Origin: Eledone cirrhosa
Lineage: Eukaryota
Reading direction: 5' to 3'
DNA length: 64,000 nucleotides
Assembly (NCBI GenBank): GCA_964016885.1
Contig: OZ024746.1
Span: forward strand, 84,630,001 to 84,694,000
In this document: positions 4,373-57,604 of the stretch, one piece after another
Numbering within the stretch: the first letter of the stretch is position 1
How the letters are laid out: every line of letters begins with the position of its first letter
The notes under the pieces: model-generated
What the model saw: the letters and a program-made list of their open reading frames with translations, nothing else
Told to the model about the DNA's origin: nothing
The model's database searches: none
Translations under genes and position numbers: made by a program

Positions 4373-4615
4373 ATATATATATATATATATATATATATAT
4401 ATTGAGTATATGTTGGTTGTTTACCGACACCTCAGTATGCAGATTGGAGTACTCGACGAAGTACGCAGGTTGGTTTGTATACTCCGGAGTAATGTAAAAT
4501 AATCCAGTTCCTCAGAGAAATAACAACGCAACCAGGAGCTGGACATATAGGAGTATTGACGGAGTAAAACACACTTAAAAAACATGTGTAACCCATCTCT
4601 ACCACACCAATTCGG

Positions 4616-4670
4616 ACTGCCTGAAGACGTCACAGTCAATGATGGCTGTCACCGAAATATATATAGCAGT
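4616..4670 (+). ncRNA. Minimal type-I hammerhead ribozyme in a TA-flanked PLE-like element (4401-4726)
   Basis: ACTGC-CTGAAGA-C-[stem II ACAGTCA/TGGCTGT]-GAAA-TATATA-TA-GCAGT; AATAAA about 15 nt downstream; base of stem II imperfect. Confidence 0.7.
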
Positions 4671-4871
4671 ATATCTATAATTTATAATAAACGAAGCCAA
4701 ATTTTACCTATTTGACTTAATTATTTTATATATATATATATATTTGAATGTATATATAGTGTATTTTGCTATACAATGTATACTTAATTAAAAGCATTTT
4801 GAAGACCTTACGCTATTGTTTTAAAGTAGTGACTATGTCACTTACTTCTTTGTTCAACAAACAAAGTGAGA

Positions 4872-4919
4872 TAAGCTGACAGATCTCTGTTTCATACTGT
4901 TGGTACTCCTCAGAGCTTA
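4872..4919 (-). ncRNA. Canonical type-I hammerhead ribozyme
   Basis: Minus strand: UAAGCU-CUGAGGA-GUAC caaca GUAU-GAAA-CAGA ga UCUG-UC^-AGCUUA. All core nucleotides and three helices are present; GUC cleavage triplet. Confidence 0.88.
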
Positions 4920-5055
4920 GCACTCCCCTTATTTGTTGAAAATTATGAATGTTGGATTCTTATAGAATTCCAGTAATACTGATTATTCAGAGCGGTTGCC
5001 GGTGCAGCAAAAATTGAAAATTAGAATTGGTGCTCTGAAATAGCGATATATATAG

Positions 5056-5713
5056 GTGACTAGCAGAGGGGGTGAATGAAAGTAAGAGGGAGAAGGAGAG
5101 AGAAGGAGGAGAGAGAAAGAGGATAGCAGTAAGGGAAGAGAAAAAGACAGGTCACAGCGAAGGGGAAAGCATATAGGAATGAAAATTGGCATACTGTGTT
5201 GTTGCAAATGTGATATACAAATTAAAATGAAGAATTAGAAATATACTTTCATTCACCCCCTCTGCTAGTCACCGTCTCTCGGCTAGCATCTTCCTCACAC
5301 GTTCACTCACTCACTCTCTGCTACTCACCCTCCCTCTCACTTCCCCCATCGTCCCACACCGTGCGTAATTCTTTCCTAGCTTACTTTCGCATGGTTGGGA
5401 TGTGTCTCTCGTCTTCTCGTCAATATTCGTTCAAATGAATCATTGACTTGATTTTCTCATTTTTTTCCTCTCTTTACGTTGCCTCACCATTCATGTTTGT
5501 TTACCTGTCCCTCTTTCTCCACCCAATTCTTTTTATCCCAATAACTTATTTCAGTTATTGTTCCCGCTAGCCTGAGGTATCAGGTCTTTAATGCGAAGAA
5601 ATACCTATGATGGCTAGTAGATCACTGATGATGGATAGTCCTATTTCTAATTTTTCATTTTAATTTGTATATCACATTTGCAACAACACAGCACGCCATT
5701 TTTCATTCCTATA
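5056..5713. mobile_element. Family K copy B, with an inverted arm (5056-5243) fused to a forward unit (5244-5713)
   Basis: 5174-5243 is the reverse complement of 5643-5713; 5056-5083 is the reverse complement of 5244-5272; TA-rich flanks. Confidence 0.7.
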
Positions 5714-6598
5714 TATATATAGGAATATATATATATATATATATATATATATATATATATATATATATATATATATATATATATATATATATATATATAT
5801 ATATATATATATATGTGTGTGTGTGTCAGGGGTCGTGGAAGCATTTCTGAATGGGCGGGGAGGGTGTGTGTGTGCAAATTTGGACAATTTAGTTGTAGTG
5901 ATTAGTTTATCAGTTTAGCTCTTTGCTCTCTAAAATGGTAAGAAAACTTCGATATGTAATAAACATAACATGTACATATATTGTAGCACATATCCAAATA
6001 TGTATGTTTTGGGAGTTTGGGGAGAATATATAATTATTGGAGGGGGGCATGTCCAATTCCACCGCCAATGTATATATATATAATAAAAAGAAATTATGCT
6101 CTCTGCCTTTTCCAAAGAGTTTAATATATCGACCTTCTTCGCATTTTCTAAGAAACTGGTATTATACCCAATGTATATATTTCCTATATATATATATATA
6201 TATATATATATATATATATATATATATATATATATATATATATATATATATATATATAGGAAAAGAGTCAGGACCTCGACCGCTGAGCTCCGGCCGTTTC
6301 GCCAGCTAGATCCGAACATATATATAATACATACACGTCTGTACACACCCGTACACACACACACGCATATATATATATATATATATATGTAAATATACTT
6401 TATTTCACGTTGCTCCTTCTACCTGGAGTTCCGACCGATAGATAGTATTAGCAACTGGAAAGACCGACGAAAACATTGTTTCCTTGGTCCGATTTGACGA
6501 AAGTCGATCGATCCTTATATGTAAATATATATATATATATATATATATATATATATATTTTCTTGATGAGACTTTCCAAGTATTTACCCATGTTTTAT

Positions 6599-6676
6599 AT
6601 TGCCTCGTCTGACGAACGAATGAAGACGTTTCTTTCGTATTCGCCTCATTCGGGAAACCTCTGGTAATGAGGTAAT
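6599..6676 (+). ncRNA. Type-I hammerhead ribozyme in a TA-flanked element (6558-6778)
   Basis: ATTGCCTCGT-CTGACGA-A-CGAATGA...TCATTCG-G-GAAA-CC tct GG-TA^-ATGAGGTAAT. The 3' tail (ACATAGAGCACTC) is shared with the 55710 element. Confidence 0.82.
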
Positions 6677-54767: not shown

Positions 54768-54974
54768 AATAATAATAATAATATTAAAAGGGAACAAAGA
54801 ATCAAAATTGCATCATATACATATTTAATTACATATTACATATGTTTCACTGCCGATCAGCTCGAGTAATGATCGATTAATGTTCAGTCCTGAGTCTGGA
54901 ATCGGATATGTATTCACTTATAGACTCTTGTTGGCATACCGCCTGCGGCGCAATCAATTTGCGCCTCTAATACC

Positions 54975-55189
54975 TATATATAAAAGGAACGATCGACTTT
55001 CGTCAAATCGGACCGAGGGAACAATGTTTCTGTTGGTCTTTCCAATTGCTAATACTATCTATCGGTCGCAACTCCAGGTAGAAGGAGCAACGTGAAATAA
55101 AGTGTCTTGCTCAAGGACATAACGCACCGCCTGGTACAGGAATCGAACTCACAACCTTACGATTGCGAATCCGATTCTCTAACCACTCA
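54975..55189 (-). mobile_element. SINE family B2 (inverted partner of 55253-55473)
   Basis: Reverse-complement homolog with several substitutions. Confidence 0.85.
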
Positions 55190-55252
55190 ATATATATATA
55201 TATATATATATATATATATATATATATATATATATATATATATATATATAGT

Positions 55253-55473
55253 GAAGGCGTGTGGCTGAGTGGTTAGAGAATTGGATTCGCAATCGTAAGG
55301 TTGTGAGTTCGATTCCTGGACCAGGCGATGCGTTATGTCCTTGAGCAAGACACTTTATTTCACGTTGCTCCTTCTACCTGGAGTTGCGACCGATAGATAG
55401 TATTAGCAATTGGAAAGACCAACGGAAACATTCTTCCCTCGGTCCGATTTGACGAAAGTCGATCGTTCCTTTT
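55253..55473 (+). mobile_element. tRNA-derived SINE family B2, full length, between (TA)n tracts
   Basis: A-box TGGCTGAGTGG, B-box GTTCGATTCC, CORE-like TGTCCTTGAGCAAGACACTTT. A 3' fragment also lies at 6395-6518. Confidence 0.85.
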
Positions 55474-55709
55474 ATATATATATATATATATATATATATA
55501 TATATATTATTATTATTATGTAATAAACAACATAAGGCAATTATTCCATTTACCAGTGGTTTCTTAAAAGCAAAAGGTTTTGCTTTCAATCCTCAGAACG
55601 GAAAAATCCTGGTTTGTTTATTGAATTTGGATTACAAACCAGGATTTTTAATCCAAATTCAATAAACAAACCAGGATTGTAATCCAAATTCAATAAACAA
55701 ACCAGGTTT

Positions 55710-55769
55710 TTCCGTTCTGAGGATTGAAAGCAAAACCTTTTGCTTTTAAGAAACCACTGGTAAATGGAA
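55710..55769 (+). ncRNA. Canonical type-I hammerhead (mirror copy 55544-55603, minus strand) in a fold-back element (55509-55870)
   Basis: TTCCGTT-CTGAGGA-TTGAAAGCAAAA cc TTTTGCTTTTAA-GAAA-CCA c TGG-TA^-AATGGAA. Confidence 0.85.
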
Positions 55770-57604
55770 TAATTGCCTTATGTTGTTTATTACATAATAA
55801 TAATAATTAAGCTCTGTTGCCTACATAGAGCACTCTTTTTTCCTGGACTTTTCCGATGGAATTACTTCACACATATATATATATATATATATATATATAT
55901 ATATATATATATATGAAAAATTCGGGACCCCGACGGCTGAGTTCCTTCCGTTTCAACAGCTAGACCCCGAACTTATCATATAACCCACTCTACTATCCCA
56001 TGTATCAAGTACTCTGGTGAGTAATGGTTTAAGTGGTTTTTACTGCTTCCATTCTGATATATACGTTTATATATATATATATATATATATATATATATAT
56101 ATATATATATATATATATATATATATATATATACACACACACACACGCATACAGAACTTCACAGGCTGACCCACGAACAAATACACATGGGTATACATGC
56201 GCATGTGTGTAATTGTAAGTGCGCAGGTGTGTGTGTGTGTGTGTGTGTGTGTGTGTGTGTGTGTGTGTGTGTGTGTGTGTGTGTGTGTGTGTGTGCGCGT
56301 GTGTACGTGTGTTCGTATGTACATATAAGCGGTTTCCGATGCTGAAAAGATGGATGTATCTATTATAAATGTGCAAGCTATTGATATGACGTAGGAAAGA
56401 CACTATTCCATTATTCAGTGAATTTGAATTTAAAAATAACCGCCATACAAAAGTTTATTTTCTGGACATAAAATTAAATTTAGATGCTATTCAATCTTTC
56501 TCTATTTATTTCACATTAACAAGGGTTATAAAACTTCGCTTAATATTAGCTGTATTTTTGTCTCAAATGTTAGTAGAAGTATTTCATCTTTATGTTCTGA
56601 TTAAGATGCTTTAAAAAAATAAACTGCAGGATTCTATACTGAATGATTCAAACGTATAGGATTTTCTCATAAGTTAGTATACTTACTTTTAGCTCCGAAG
56701 CGCAAAAACTAAAAGTAGGAACATTTTGCGATATAACTCAAATTTTATTTTAGACCTTTACACAAAATATAGCCAAGGAATTTCTTAACGTAGTCTCACT
56801 TCATTTCACAAAAGAATATAAATATTATAGAATGTTTAACAGAAATTCTTTATAGGTTTTCTATCATTGTTGCAAAAATTCTGTAACTGTCAATTATATT
56901 AATGCAAAATAACTTCCAAACATCAACAATACTATCACAAGACATACTTGTAATTGTAGAAACTCATGTAACTATCCGCTCACCAGAAATTACCATACCA
57001 GTTTTTTTCTTATTATGCTCAAAGTCTCAAAGCAAAAGTGGATGCTGGTGCGCAATGAGAATCATATACTGGTGCGGCATCAAATGAATTCAAGACGAGA
57101 TATTACACGCATAGACATTCATTAACAGATTTTTGACTGACCTTTTCCATCTAAGTTTATAAATTGAGGAGGATATGTCATAAAACCTTCAAAATAAATT
57201 GGAGTATGTTTGCATTTGCCGCTACATAAAAGCATGGCCACAATATATATAAGCTCAGTTTTCATTTTAGCTTAATCGAAAAGACATTAATATTATTACA
57301 AGACAAAAGCAACCCTGGTCTGAGGAATGATCTGCTTTGTTGCTGTTTGCAAACGTTGAAGGTATTTTGGTATTTGTTACTGTCGCGTTGGTAACGATAG
57401 TAATATTATTGTTGTTTAGCCCGGGCACTCCTTTATCGTGAAGATGTCATATGATTAAAAGAATTCCGGTGGTGAGCATACCTCAATTTTCATAGTACGC
57501 ATGGAGAATGCAGTACCACATTAGATAACATATCCACCAGCGATCAAGAGAGCACTAATCCCGATAGAAATAGTAGCTAAATTTCCTTCAAATAACAGCC
57601 TATA

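Follow-up and report, generated by a model that had tools for sequence, protein, structure and literature searches.

A stretch of 64,000 nucleotides of the Eledone cirrhosa genome (contig OZ024746.1), referred to here as the window, contains many hammerhead ribozyme (HHR) motifs set in short islands among (TA)n microsatellites. What kind of element do these islands represent, and what fixes the points at which they end? Start-site choice, and the formation of tails and inverted repeats, are an unresolved question for Penelope-like elements (PLEs), among retroelements the closest relatives of telomerase. We propose that the islands are mostly the 3' ends of autonomous, (TA)n-targeting PLEs, mainly of the Hydra clade, and that hairpins in the RNA position the starts of reverse transcription. 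To this reading as a whole, hairpin positioning included, we assign a probability of roughly 0.65.

A preliminary description, made from the sequence alone, listed 13 canonical type-I HHR folds in the window. Eleven of them pass a type-I descriptor with stems I–III in a structure scan (cores 4621+, 4913-, 6609+, 24042-, 25675-, 30407+, 32534-, 33300-, 33321+, 55596- and 55717+), and these have the core CUGANGA/GAAA/UH and three stems. The null is a mean of 0.1 and a maximum of 2 per window, from 40 local dinucleotide shuffles with microsatellites kept in place; a stricter scan found seven sites, compared to 0.02 in 200 shuffles. The remaining two, 20426+ and 54133+, fail the descriptor and are decayed in appearance. 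The five variant cores listed fared less well: 32313+ (U4A) and 32830+ (U3:A8) pass, and the other three fail, 30736- and 47785- being mutated members of multi-copy families and 47408+ having GCAA instead of GAAA. In the random genome sample there are 17 U3:A8 cores compared to 8.2 in the null, most of them from one tandem array, and two U4A cores compared to 1.7. Variant cores alone therefore show no clear excess, and their support comes from family evidence. The U4A core is present in 18/18 rows of the 32313 family, where the anchor itself spanned the core and tolerated a single mismatch. The U3:A8 core was rejected as a novelty, having already been reported (PMC4209133).

The window is typical of the genome, with one hammerhead per 6 kb compared to one per 10 kb. 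Sampling 400 kb of genome gave 40 hammerheads against 0.6 in the null, which extrapolates to about 3x10^5 in the 3.0-Gb genome, all PLE types taken together. This is higher than the counts of about 5,000 (mussel), 9,000 (Xenopus) and up to 120,000 (axolotl) in the accessible parts of the literature. The main text of a 2026 octopus repeat paper mentions neither ribozymes nor Hydra. It is very hard to reconcile such an excess, and families of 49–2363 candidate copies each, with motifs arising by chance. In favour of chance, Rfam Hammerhead_1 has no match in the window at gathering score, and minimum free energy folding recovers a hammerhead shape at some sites but not at others (z -2.1 to +0.1). 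The same Rfam model also missed the hammerheads of 20 Hydra loci selected by protein, giving two matches on the opposite strand of L234, and an E-value scan of the window gave miRNA-like noise from microsatellites among the 150 of 451 matches listed. Palindromes made by the assembly are equally improbable, and this pair of explanations is largely refuted already: the arms differ and end at family-fixed bases, and short-read contigs (from one study, possibly of the assembly's own sample) contain many distinct fold-back junctions, and about 108 contigs enter TA at the same short end. We conclude that the window hammerheads are genuine type-I motifs and predicted ribozymes. If the ribozymes cleave in vivo, 5' truncations might be expected to accumulate where they cut; this was not supported, the truncations showing no pile-up at the scissile bond; the 32534 row was left out because of a TA run in the reference, and values of -13 are cross-family matches.

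The association with TA proposed in the preliminary description is real, and it is directional. (TA)5 occurs within 220 nt downstream of 31/40 sampled hammerheads and within 220 nt upstream of 14/40, for a same-locus expectation of 10.4; the cut-off was picked after the data were seen and the hits are non-independent.

The pieces identified in the window are collected in Table 1. Several features had been overlooked in the preliminary description, namely the fold-back anatomy, the tail hairpins, the cores 53374- and 20829-, and a further Hydra family, present as five pieces.

Table 1. Pieces of hammerhead-bearing and related elements in the window
Position	Strand	Feature	Details
4403..4726	.	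Inverted-end insertion, Hydra-type by tail	Short arm (+) HHR 4616-4670; tail arm (-) hairpin 1 4448-4490
4744..5054	-	ORF-less retrozyme-like monomer, ~300 nt	HHR 4872-4919; ~35-nt tail of another type
6259..6321	-	Short-end piece, 40461 family	
6559..6777	+	Long-end copy, sister Hydra family	HHR 6599-6676; hairpin 1 6709-6732
20426..20478	+	Decayed HHR, stem III broken	No other copy among retrieved loci
20674..20954	.	Old fold-back	HHR-like core 20829-; hairpin 1 20674-20696 (-)
23945..24183	.	Hydra fold-back	Short arm (-) HHR 23980-24050; truncated long arm (+), hairpin 1 24102-24129
25502..25760	-	PLE-type 3' end	HHR 25634-25683; no ORF link
25760..25823	+	Short-end piece, 40461 family	
25840..26104	.	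Fold-back, long and short arm	Arms without HHR
29004..29096	-	Tail-only piece, 40461 family	Hairpin 1 29049-29075
30261..30530	+	PLE-type 3' end	Minimal HHR, core 30407, palindromic ACGT stem III; 2363 candidates; no ORF link
30678..30830	-	Neptune-like PLE 3' end	U3:A8 core; cleavage triplet mutated in copy
32111..32381	.	Hydra fold-back, U4A core CAGAAGA	Cores 32316+, 32294-; hairpin 1 32172-32222 (-)
32407..32598	.	Fold-back, Hydra-type by tail	HHR 32487-32543 (-); hairpin 1 32447-32468 (-); no ORF link
32690..32929	+	Neptune-like, same family as 30736-	U3:A8 HHR, core 32835; short end
32961..33523	.	Fold-back, two HHRs	Cores 33300-, 33321+; extended hairpin 1 33007-33090 (-); no ORF link
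40461..40595	.	Fold-back, Hydra family missed in the preliminary description	Hairpin 1 40506-40532 (-); ORF link via L078
47028..47565	.	Fold-back, GCAA in a U3:A8-type core	~40-nt tail on - arm
47698..47835	-	Decayed 30407-family copy	79% identical
53235..53400	-	Decayed HHR	Core 53374, GATA for GAAA; hairpin 1 53274-53296
54133..54200	+	HHR-like core, doubtful	Fails descriptor
55508..55872	.	Fold-back, recently mobile 55710-family Hydra-clade PLE, flanked by (TA)n	Short arm (-) HHR 55544-55603; long arm (+) HHR 55710-55769, hairpin 1 55811-55834, tail to 55872; full-length relative L022
55915..56050	-	Tail piece and short-end piece joined, 40461 family	
56766..57112	+	Decayed Hydra-like ORF fragment	31-42% identity

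The ORF listing of the window, inspected by eye, shows no retroelement ORF. When the families were extended outside the window towards RT and GIY-YIG partners, six of them ran continuously into RT/GIY-YIG ORFs; five belong to the Hydra clade, identified by RWK, DKT and CxCx5C motifs, and one is Neptune-like. This continuity makes these islands 5'-truncated or fold-back insertions of autonomous PLEs, and bears out the retroelement origin and PLE connection originally suggested. The 6599 family ORF begins 121 nt past the tail in L130, L138 and L148. In the 23982- family, the endonuclease lies 1016 nt upstream in L271, and L280 continues through hairpin 2 into the ORF. The U4A family runs from ORF to HHR in L061 with no intervening TA tract. 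A relative of the 55710 family, L022, is a full pLTR-ORF-pLTR element. Some families are young: 19/150 scored RT matches of the 55710 family have open frames of 713–715 codons, and the 33321 family, with a stem II of about 120 nt, is very young (40 scored copies at 99–100%).

The intact 710-aa ORF of the 55710 family (L047) contains RWK, DKT, CxCx5C, CxxC and CxH motifs, YRDD, and a C-terminal YVG..RF..H region; by eye, CCHH is absent from the Hydra-type ORF. In alignment A1, R37-W38, K115-T116, C555, C557 and C563 are invariant, and C658/C661 and C689/H691 nearly so. Pfam detected neither RT nor GIY-YIG in this ORF, and a PDB sequence search gave no match. Its Atlas neighbours carry RVT_1, GIY-YIG and HTH_animal, and 42/87 residues, counted by eye, match the N-terminus of the published Hydra-1_Obim. 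Among 45 metagenome Hydra loci picked by protein, a sense hammerhead occurs in 38 and an antisense one in 2. The hammerhead lies near the 3' end in Hydra-clade elements and is canonical, but has a variant core in two Hydra-linked families. On this evidence the identification as Hydra PLEs is close to certain.

Neptune PLEs have a C-terminal GIY-YIG with a Cx2-5CxxC linker and an RT of their own type. Of these features, the 30736/32830 family, tentatively called Neptune-like, shows the GIY-YIG (C-terminal, Pfam 1.5e-6) and, ahead of it, the CxxC. In L103 and L124 the endonuclease runs up to a stop codon, after which come the 3'UTR and the HHR; the family also has two ends at (TA)n and a tail of about 65 nt of its own type. 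A Naiad identity was considered and rejected, the endonuclease being C-terminal and not N-terminal.

In the preliminary description the islands were a population of unrelated, non-autonomous elements, or retrozymes. For the 4872- family this reading does fit, and for this family alone: the ORF-less HHR unit of about 300 nt, within the 150–450 nt expected of a retrozyme, is arranged head to tail, the tail reading straight into the next HHR unit in the copies listed (the query was selected for full units), and L078 contains a related 311-bp tandem array. Apparent ORF links of this family (L238, L244, L266) were discarded as insertions into, or adjacent to, other elements, and on the same grounds one link each for 32534 and 33321 was disregarded. 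Nine further hammerhead sites have no ORF link in the retrieved loci, which did not include those of the 33321 and 30407 families. However, four of the nine (4621, 32534, 33321, 53374) bear the Hydra-type tail hairpin, six families are continuous with ORFs, and the families are homologous to one another, 55710 and 6599 for example aligning, with ORF N-termini 64–68% identical. As a general account a retrozyme population is thus improbable, and for most islands neither "unrelated" nor "non-autonomous" can be retained.

In the Hydra unit the 3'UTR leads into the hammerhead, which is followed in order by the short end, hairpin 1, the long end, hairpin 2, the ATG, RT and GIY-YIG. The two bulged hairpins (GCTC...GAGCACT) lie 59–83 nt apart between the ribozyme and the start codon, with hairpin 2 located 19–70 nt upstream of the ATG. 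Among 27 metagenome loci, 18 have both hairpins, 8 have one and 1 has none; in an ORF-interior control (n=325) none had two and three had one. The search pattern itself fixes the near-invariant lower stem, and the real covariation is therefore that of the upper stem alone. There, 102/135 positions pair, compared to 71±4.7 in cross-shuffles, and solely in the register with a 2-nt bulge (45 hairpins, 30 clusters, median protein identity 46%). The first pair is GC in 25 and AU in 4 (n=29). Covariation in the upper stem of hairpin 2 is weaker (61/93 vs 55.1). The strict pattern finds hairpin 1 in 7/40 sampled hammerheads, short-end copies being unable to display it, and 22/49 pattern matches in the random sample lie well away from (TA)n. 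Published consensus sequences also contain the motif: both hairpins in Hydra-1_Ajap, hairpin 1 in Hydra-2_Ajap and Hydra-2_Amil. The words "hairpin" and "stem-loop" do not occur in the main text or supplement of PMC8557442. The twin hairpin between ribozyme and ATG is a new feature; the host clade, its HHRs and (TA)n targeting are already published.

Genomic 3' ends fall at two fixed sites at (TA)n, each about 2–8 nt 5' of one hairpin, and the idea of (TA)n as a landing pad is upheld. The ends are bimodal in three sets (26 short and 18 long of 58; 3 and 28 of 34; 24 and 24 of 48, the split for 6609 being skewed by its query), and none of these sets has ends between the two classes. In the metagenome, 9/21 comparisons depart from the reference 0–8 nt before a hairpin, one ends 13 nt before it, and 11/21 were uninformative or stopped at a contig end. 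All ten head-to-head fold-backs that were inspected in the window pair one short with one long arm (10/10, by eye).

On the basis of these observations, we hypothesise that uncleaved RNA containing the pLTR is bound at its hairpins by the RT-endonuclease, which nicks the two strands of (TA)n. Each of the 3'-OH ends so formed would prime cDNA immediately 5' of one hairpin, aided by TA/TATA microhomology, and synthesis would mostly halt after 50–300 nt. The two cDNAs would then be joined head to head into a fold-back of unequal arms, one short and the other long, and the tail would be the distance separating the hairpins. Hammerheads would be abundant because they lie within the first stretch copied, not because every copy works. 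That the hairpins set the start sites of reverse transcription is probable; for two-strand twin priming the odds appear about even. The full proposal, that the duplicated hairpin is a positioning element from which two RT active sites start a few bases 5' of each copy on opposite (TA)n strands, falls slightly short of that and is made tentatively. The template-positioning elements of telomerase RNA may provide a functional analogue.

The same elements could instead have their ends set by TA microhomology or by endonuclease recognition of DNA, with the hairpins serving translation, transcription or packaging. TA/TATA is indeed common to the target and both junction classes, the lower stem is nearly invariant, as in a sequence-specific site, and the D. 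virilis Penelope endonuclease requires the tail in DNA (cited in PMC11167929); in addition, hairpin 2 lies 19–70 nt upstream of the ATG. Against this, TA-rich spots are frequent in these UTRs, yet no ends lie between the two classes, and the hairpin offset is retained across families differing in tail length. Covariation in the bulged upper stem is also a sign of a structure formed by a single strand. We regard this alternative as unlikely. Slightly less unlikely is an origin of the fold-backs in self-priming on an antisense template, or in a template switch by a single primed cDNA (Arkhipova 2013), and not in priming on two target strands, as put forward from palindromes at inverted junctions (PMC3846280). 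Some junctions do recur at similar positions, but junctions differ widely among copies, and two different fixed arm ends, each at (TA)n, in all ten window cases are not predicted. The GCTC...GAGCACT hairpin is no general PLE rule, since it is missing from the Neptune-like and 4872- families, each of which likewise has two ends.

If hairpin positioning is correct, a single step would account for the tail of PLEs, for their having two start sites and for the asymmetry of the inverted repeats. Both start sites would be predicted to within a few bases by one short cis-element, which is kept in lineages whose proteins share about 46% identity. The process would have left some 10^5 hammerhead copies and would go on splitting TA tracts, thereby creating further targets. 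Since intact ORFs are available and the (TA)n target is simple, the model lends itself to a direct test in vitro.

The closest known relatives are the Hydra-clade PLEs with a C-terminal endonuclease, described as 6 new and 21 Repbase families, one of them octopus, Hydra-1_Obim being a member (Craig et al. 2021, PMC8557442). Shared features are a single ORF of about 710 aa with RWK, DKT, CxCx5C, CxxC and CxH, a hammerhead close to the 3' end, insertion at (TA)n, and the presence of a pLTR, an inverted copy and a tail. The differences are the many families and recent activity here, tails of about 60–135 nt in this window compared to 30–40 published, and the size of the 55710 family: the HHR-to-HHR distance in L022 is 4.3 kb because of a long, microsatellite-rich 3'UTR, whereas Hydra elements tend, though not strictly, to be under 3 kb.

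The Neptune/Nematis-type PLEs share a C-terminal GIY-YIG behind a CxxC linker, a hammerhead and two ends at (TA)n with the 30736/32830 family, which differs in its U3:A8 core and its tail. Metazoan non-LTR retrozymes (PMC7229834; bioRxiv 10.64898/2026.07.22.740005), which are ORF-less, AT-rich units of about 300 nt with a type-I hammerhead, tandem or solo, are matched by the 4872- family and the L078 array; most islands differ in being ORF-linked truncations. The accessible part of the work on the minimal hammerheads found in PLEs (Cervera and de la Pena 2014, PMC4209133) describes single motifs from truncated PLEs, opposite-strand pairs 100–700 bp apart, a palindromic helix III and a covariant U3:A8 core, all seen here also. 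Its counts are about 1,300–9,000 hammerheads per genome, compared to about 3x10^5 here, and its relevant part contains no family-wide U4A core.

For priming, a comparison is provided by the Anolis PLE Poseidon (Frangieh et al. 2024, PMC11167929), in which the tail is the interval between two RT starts in vitro, the HHR is dispensable and priming needs no homology. Two internal start sites spanning the tail, and a hammerhead intact in insertions, are common to both systems. The Poseidon starts lie inside the ORF, at an AC-rich stem-loop and without target homology, whereas the Hydra-type starts would lie in the 5'UTR, each ahead of a repeated hairpin and with TA microhomology.

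Hammerheads are abundant in the Eledone cirrhosa genome. Forty 10-kb stretches, evenly spaced and drawn from the larger chromosomes of the 3.0 Gb assembly (1796 contigs), contain 40 canonical hammerheads against 0.6 for the null, and these group into 20–24 sequence clusters. Extrapolation gives 3.0×10^5 hammerheads genome-wide (bootstrap 1.8–4.3×10^5), a figure that counts mirror pairs and one five-copy array. The association with (TA)n microsatellites proposed in the preliminary description holds: a tract lies within 220 nt downstream in 31 of the 40 and upstream in 14, with 10.4 expected, the preference being for the downstream side. 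A 2026 octopus repeat annotation reports 31 recently active families of Penelope-like elements (PLEs), and its main text nowhere names ribozymes or the Hydra clade of PLEs. The scale of the hammerhead population is new here, as is the twin-hairpin rule described below.

In the window, 11 of the 13 sites named as canonical type-I hammerheads pass our descriptor, against 0.1 in shuffled sequence; 20426+ and 54133+ fail. A tighter version gives seven matches, against 0.02 in shuffled sequence. Two of the five proposed variant cores also pass, and two more are mutated copies from multi-copy families. An Rfam scan of the window finds no hammerheads, but the same model overlooks the sense-strand hammerheads of 20 Hydra loci, and the zero is therefore a limit of the model. 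The suggestion that the elements are non-autonomous holds for the ORF-less 4872- family (families are named by hammerhead position), but not for those that lead to ORFs. The original observation is mostly borne out, and the element class is already known: Craig et al. (2021; PMC8557442) describe the Hydra clade, with hammerheads and (TA)n targeting, including one octopus family.

The families are new members of the Hydra clade, together with a single Neptune-like family and a single retrozyme. For the 55710 family there are 252 candidates, of which the scored copies are 97–100% identical. One locus (L022) holds a complete element, in which the pLTR and ORF are followed by a long 3'UTR, with microsatellites inside it as well as a second, decayed hammerhead, and then by the hammerhead and a tail reaching (TA)n. 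Its RT has 29,355 candidate places in the genome; all 150 scored are 96–100% identical, and 19 of them have open frames of 713–715 codons (counted by eye). The 710-residue protein has the defining Hydra motifs and resembles Hydra-1_Obim, and its closest relatives, among 1343 homologues in 8000 scored, are 41–58% identical. The count of 44 ORF links for this family is inflated, because 30 loci were fetched using its own RT. Since (TA)n and (TG)n tracts of the 3'UTR are common to copies (L021–L024), the element disperses microsatellites.

The 6599 family is also Hydra (16 linked loci, ORF 121 nt past the tail), as are the 23982 family (ORF reached in L271 and L280), the 32313 family (L061 and L244), and a family overlooked in the preliminary description, which has an ORF in L078 and a variant U3:A8 hammerhead, read by eye. 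The U3:A8 covariant, already present in Cervera and de la Pena (2014; PMC4209133) along with opposite-strand hammerhead pairs, is found in metagenome elements L163 and L230, and thus recurs across the clade. An AT-rich tandem array in L088 gives repeated U3:A8-like matches with no TA tract close by; these are probably false positives. The 30736/32830 family has its 3' end behind a C-terminal GIY-YIG of probable Neptune type. The 4872- family, an ORF-less unit of ~300 nt whose tail continues into the next unit, is a retrozyme as defined in PMC7229834 and a 2026 preprint. Nine hammerhead sites have no ORF link among the loci fetched.

Coordinates of additional features, in the window unless a fetched locus (L-number) is given
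Position	Feature	Remarks
12960-13482, 8560-8745, 23074-23261, about 20 more	SINE-like family, ~190 nt, very abundant	A subfamily copy occupies the 55710-family short-end site in L005 and L022
33097-33524	Family with adjacent inverted arm in 13 other copies among 40 scored	Inversion directly 5' of stem I in most of the 13; truncation hot spot or propagating palindrome
54977-55473, 6397-6523, 35612-35805	Inverted duplication flanking central (TA)30, tail-to-tail, not head-to-head	SINE piece plus another TA-adjacent element end; no hammerhead seen
3807-4371, 5176-5709, 39779-40435	~600-nt repeat family, CTGATGA/CTGACGA near TA-adjacent end, without GAAA or stems	Short direct terminal repeat in one copy; may be a PLE end that has half of the core
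584-1107, 10459-10553	Inverted repeats, old or SINE-derived	Unconnected to hammerhead islands
15254-17671	C-rich tandem array	20-bp unit, 121 copies, 94% matches
L078 8630-9900	Retrozyme array, four direct 311-bp hammerhead units and one inverted	Tail similar to 4872- family tail
L163 2400	U3:A8 core	Metagenome Hydra element
L230 2103	U3:A8 core	Metagenome Hydra element

Many islands in the window are fold-backs. In all ten head-to-head cases (by eye) one arm stops at the short site and the other has the tail, a count that excludes other self-inverted stretches, which are of different kinds. In three families the element ends have a bimodal distribution without intermediates, and in short-read contigs from one study the junctions varied and the short end was identical. 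Tails and inverted copies are known PLE features (Craig et al., 2021). Fold-backs could alternatively be made by self-priming, as proposed in PMC3846280.

A hairpin (RCTC, stem, loop, stem, 2-nt bulge, GAGY) is common to the tails of nine window families, and 11 of the 13 matches to the pattern in the window are at element ends. Among 79 metagenome Hydra loci, picked by protein, 45 have enough 3' sequence, with a sense hammerhead in 38 and an antisense one in 2. Where at least 170 nt is present upstream (27 loci), two hairpins lie between hammerhead and ATG in 18, one in 8 and none in 1, compared to 0 doubles and 3 singles in 325 ORF-interior controls. The hairpins are spaced by 59–83 nt. With the loci clustered by protein at 65% identity, 102 of 135 cells are paired in the upper stem, against 71±4.7 when cross-shuffled, and none of the other registers is enriched. 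Hairpin 1 is strongly supported, hairpin 2 less so.

In three families of this genome, the short end directly precedes hairpin 1 and the long end directly precedes hairpin 2, with an offset of about 2–8 nt and TA microhomology at the ends; a rival reading is that ends are chosen at the DNA level or by microhomology alone. In metagenome comparisons, 9 of 21 end just before a hairpin and one 13 nt away, the other 11 being uninformative. Hydra consensus sequences published by Craig et al. (2021) contain the motif, and that of Hydra-1_Ajap starts 2 nt ahead of hairpin 1. Full-text searches of the open-access literature, and searches by term in Craig et al. and its supplement, turn up no description of the twin hairpin. 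This hairpin is absent from the Neptune-like and 4872- families, although each of them has two ends, and the signal is therefore clade-specific.

We infer that in Hydra each hairpin would position one RT start, that nicks on the two opposite strands of (TA)n would each prime one of the starts, and that the asymmetric fold-back would result when the two short cDNAs are joined. An uncleaved template would fit the observations that insertions retain whole hammerheads, that 5' ends show no excess at the scissile bond, and that one young family carries a U4A core in all 18 rows of an anchor-biased set. In a Poseidon PLE (Frangieh et al., 2024; PMC11167929), RT begins at two internal sites, the tail being the interval between them, and hammerhead cleavage is dispensable in vitro.
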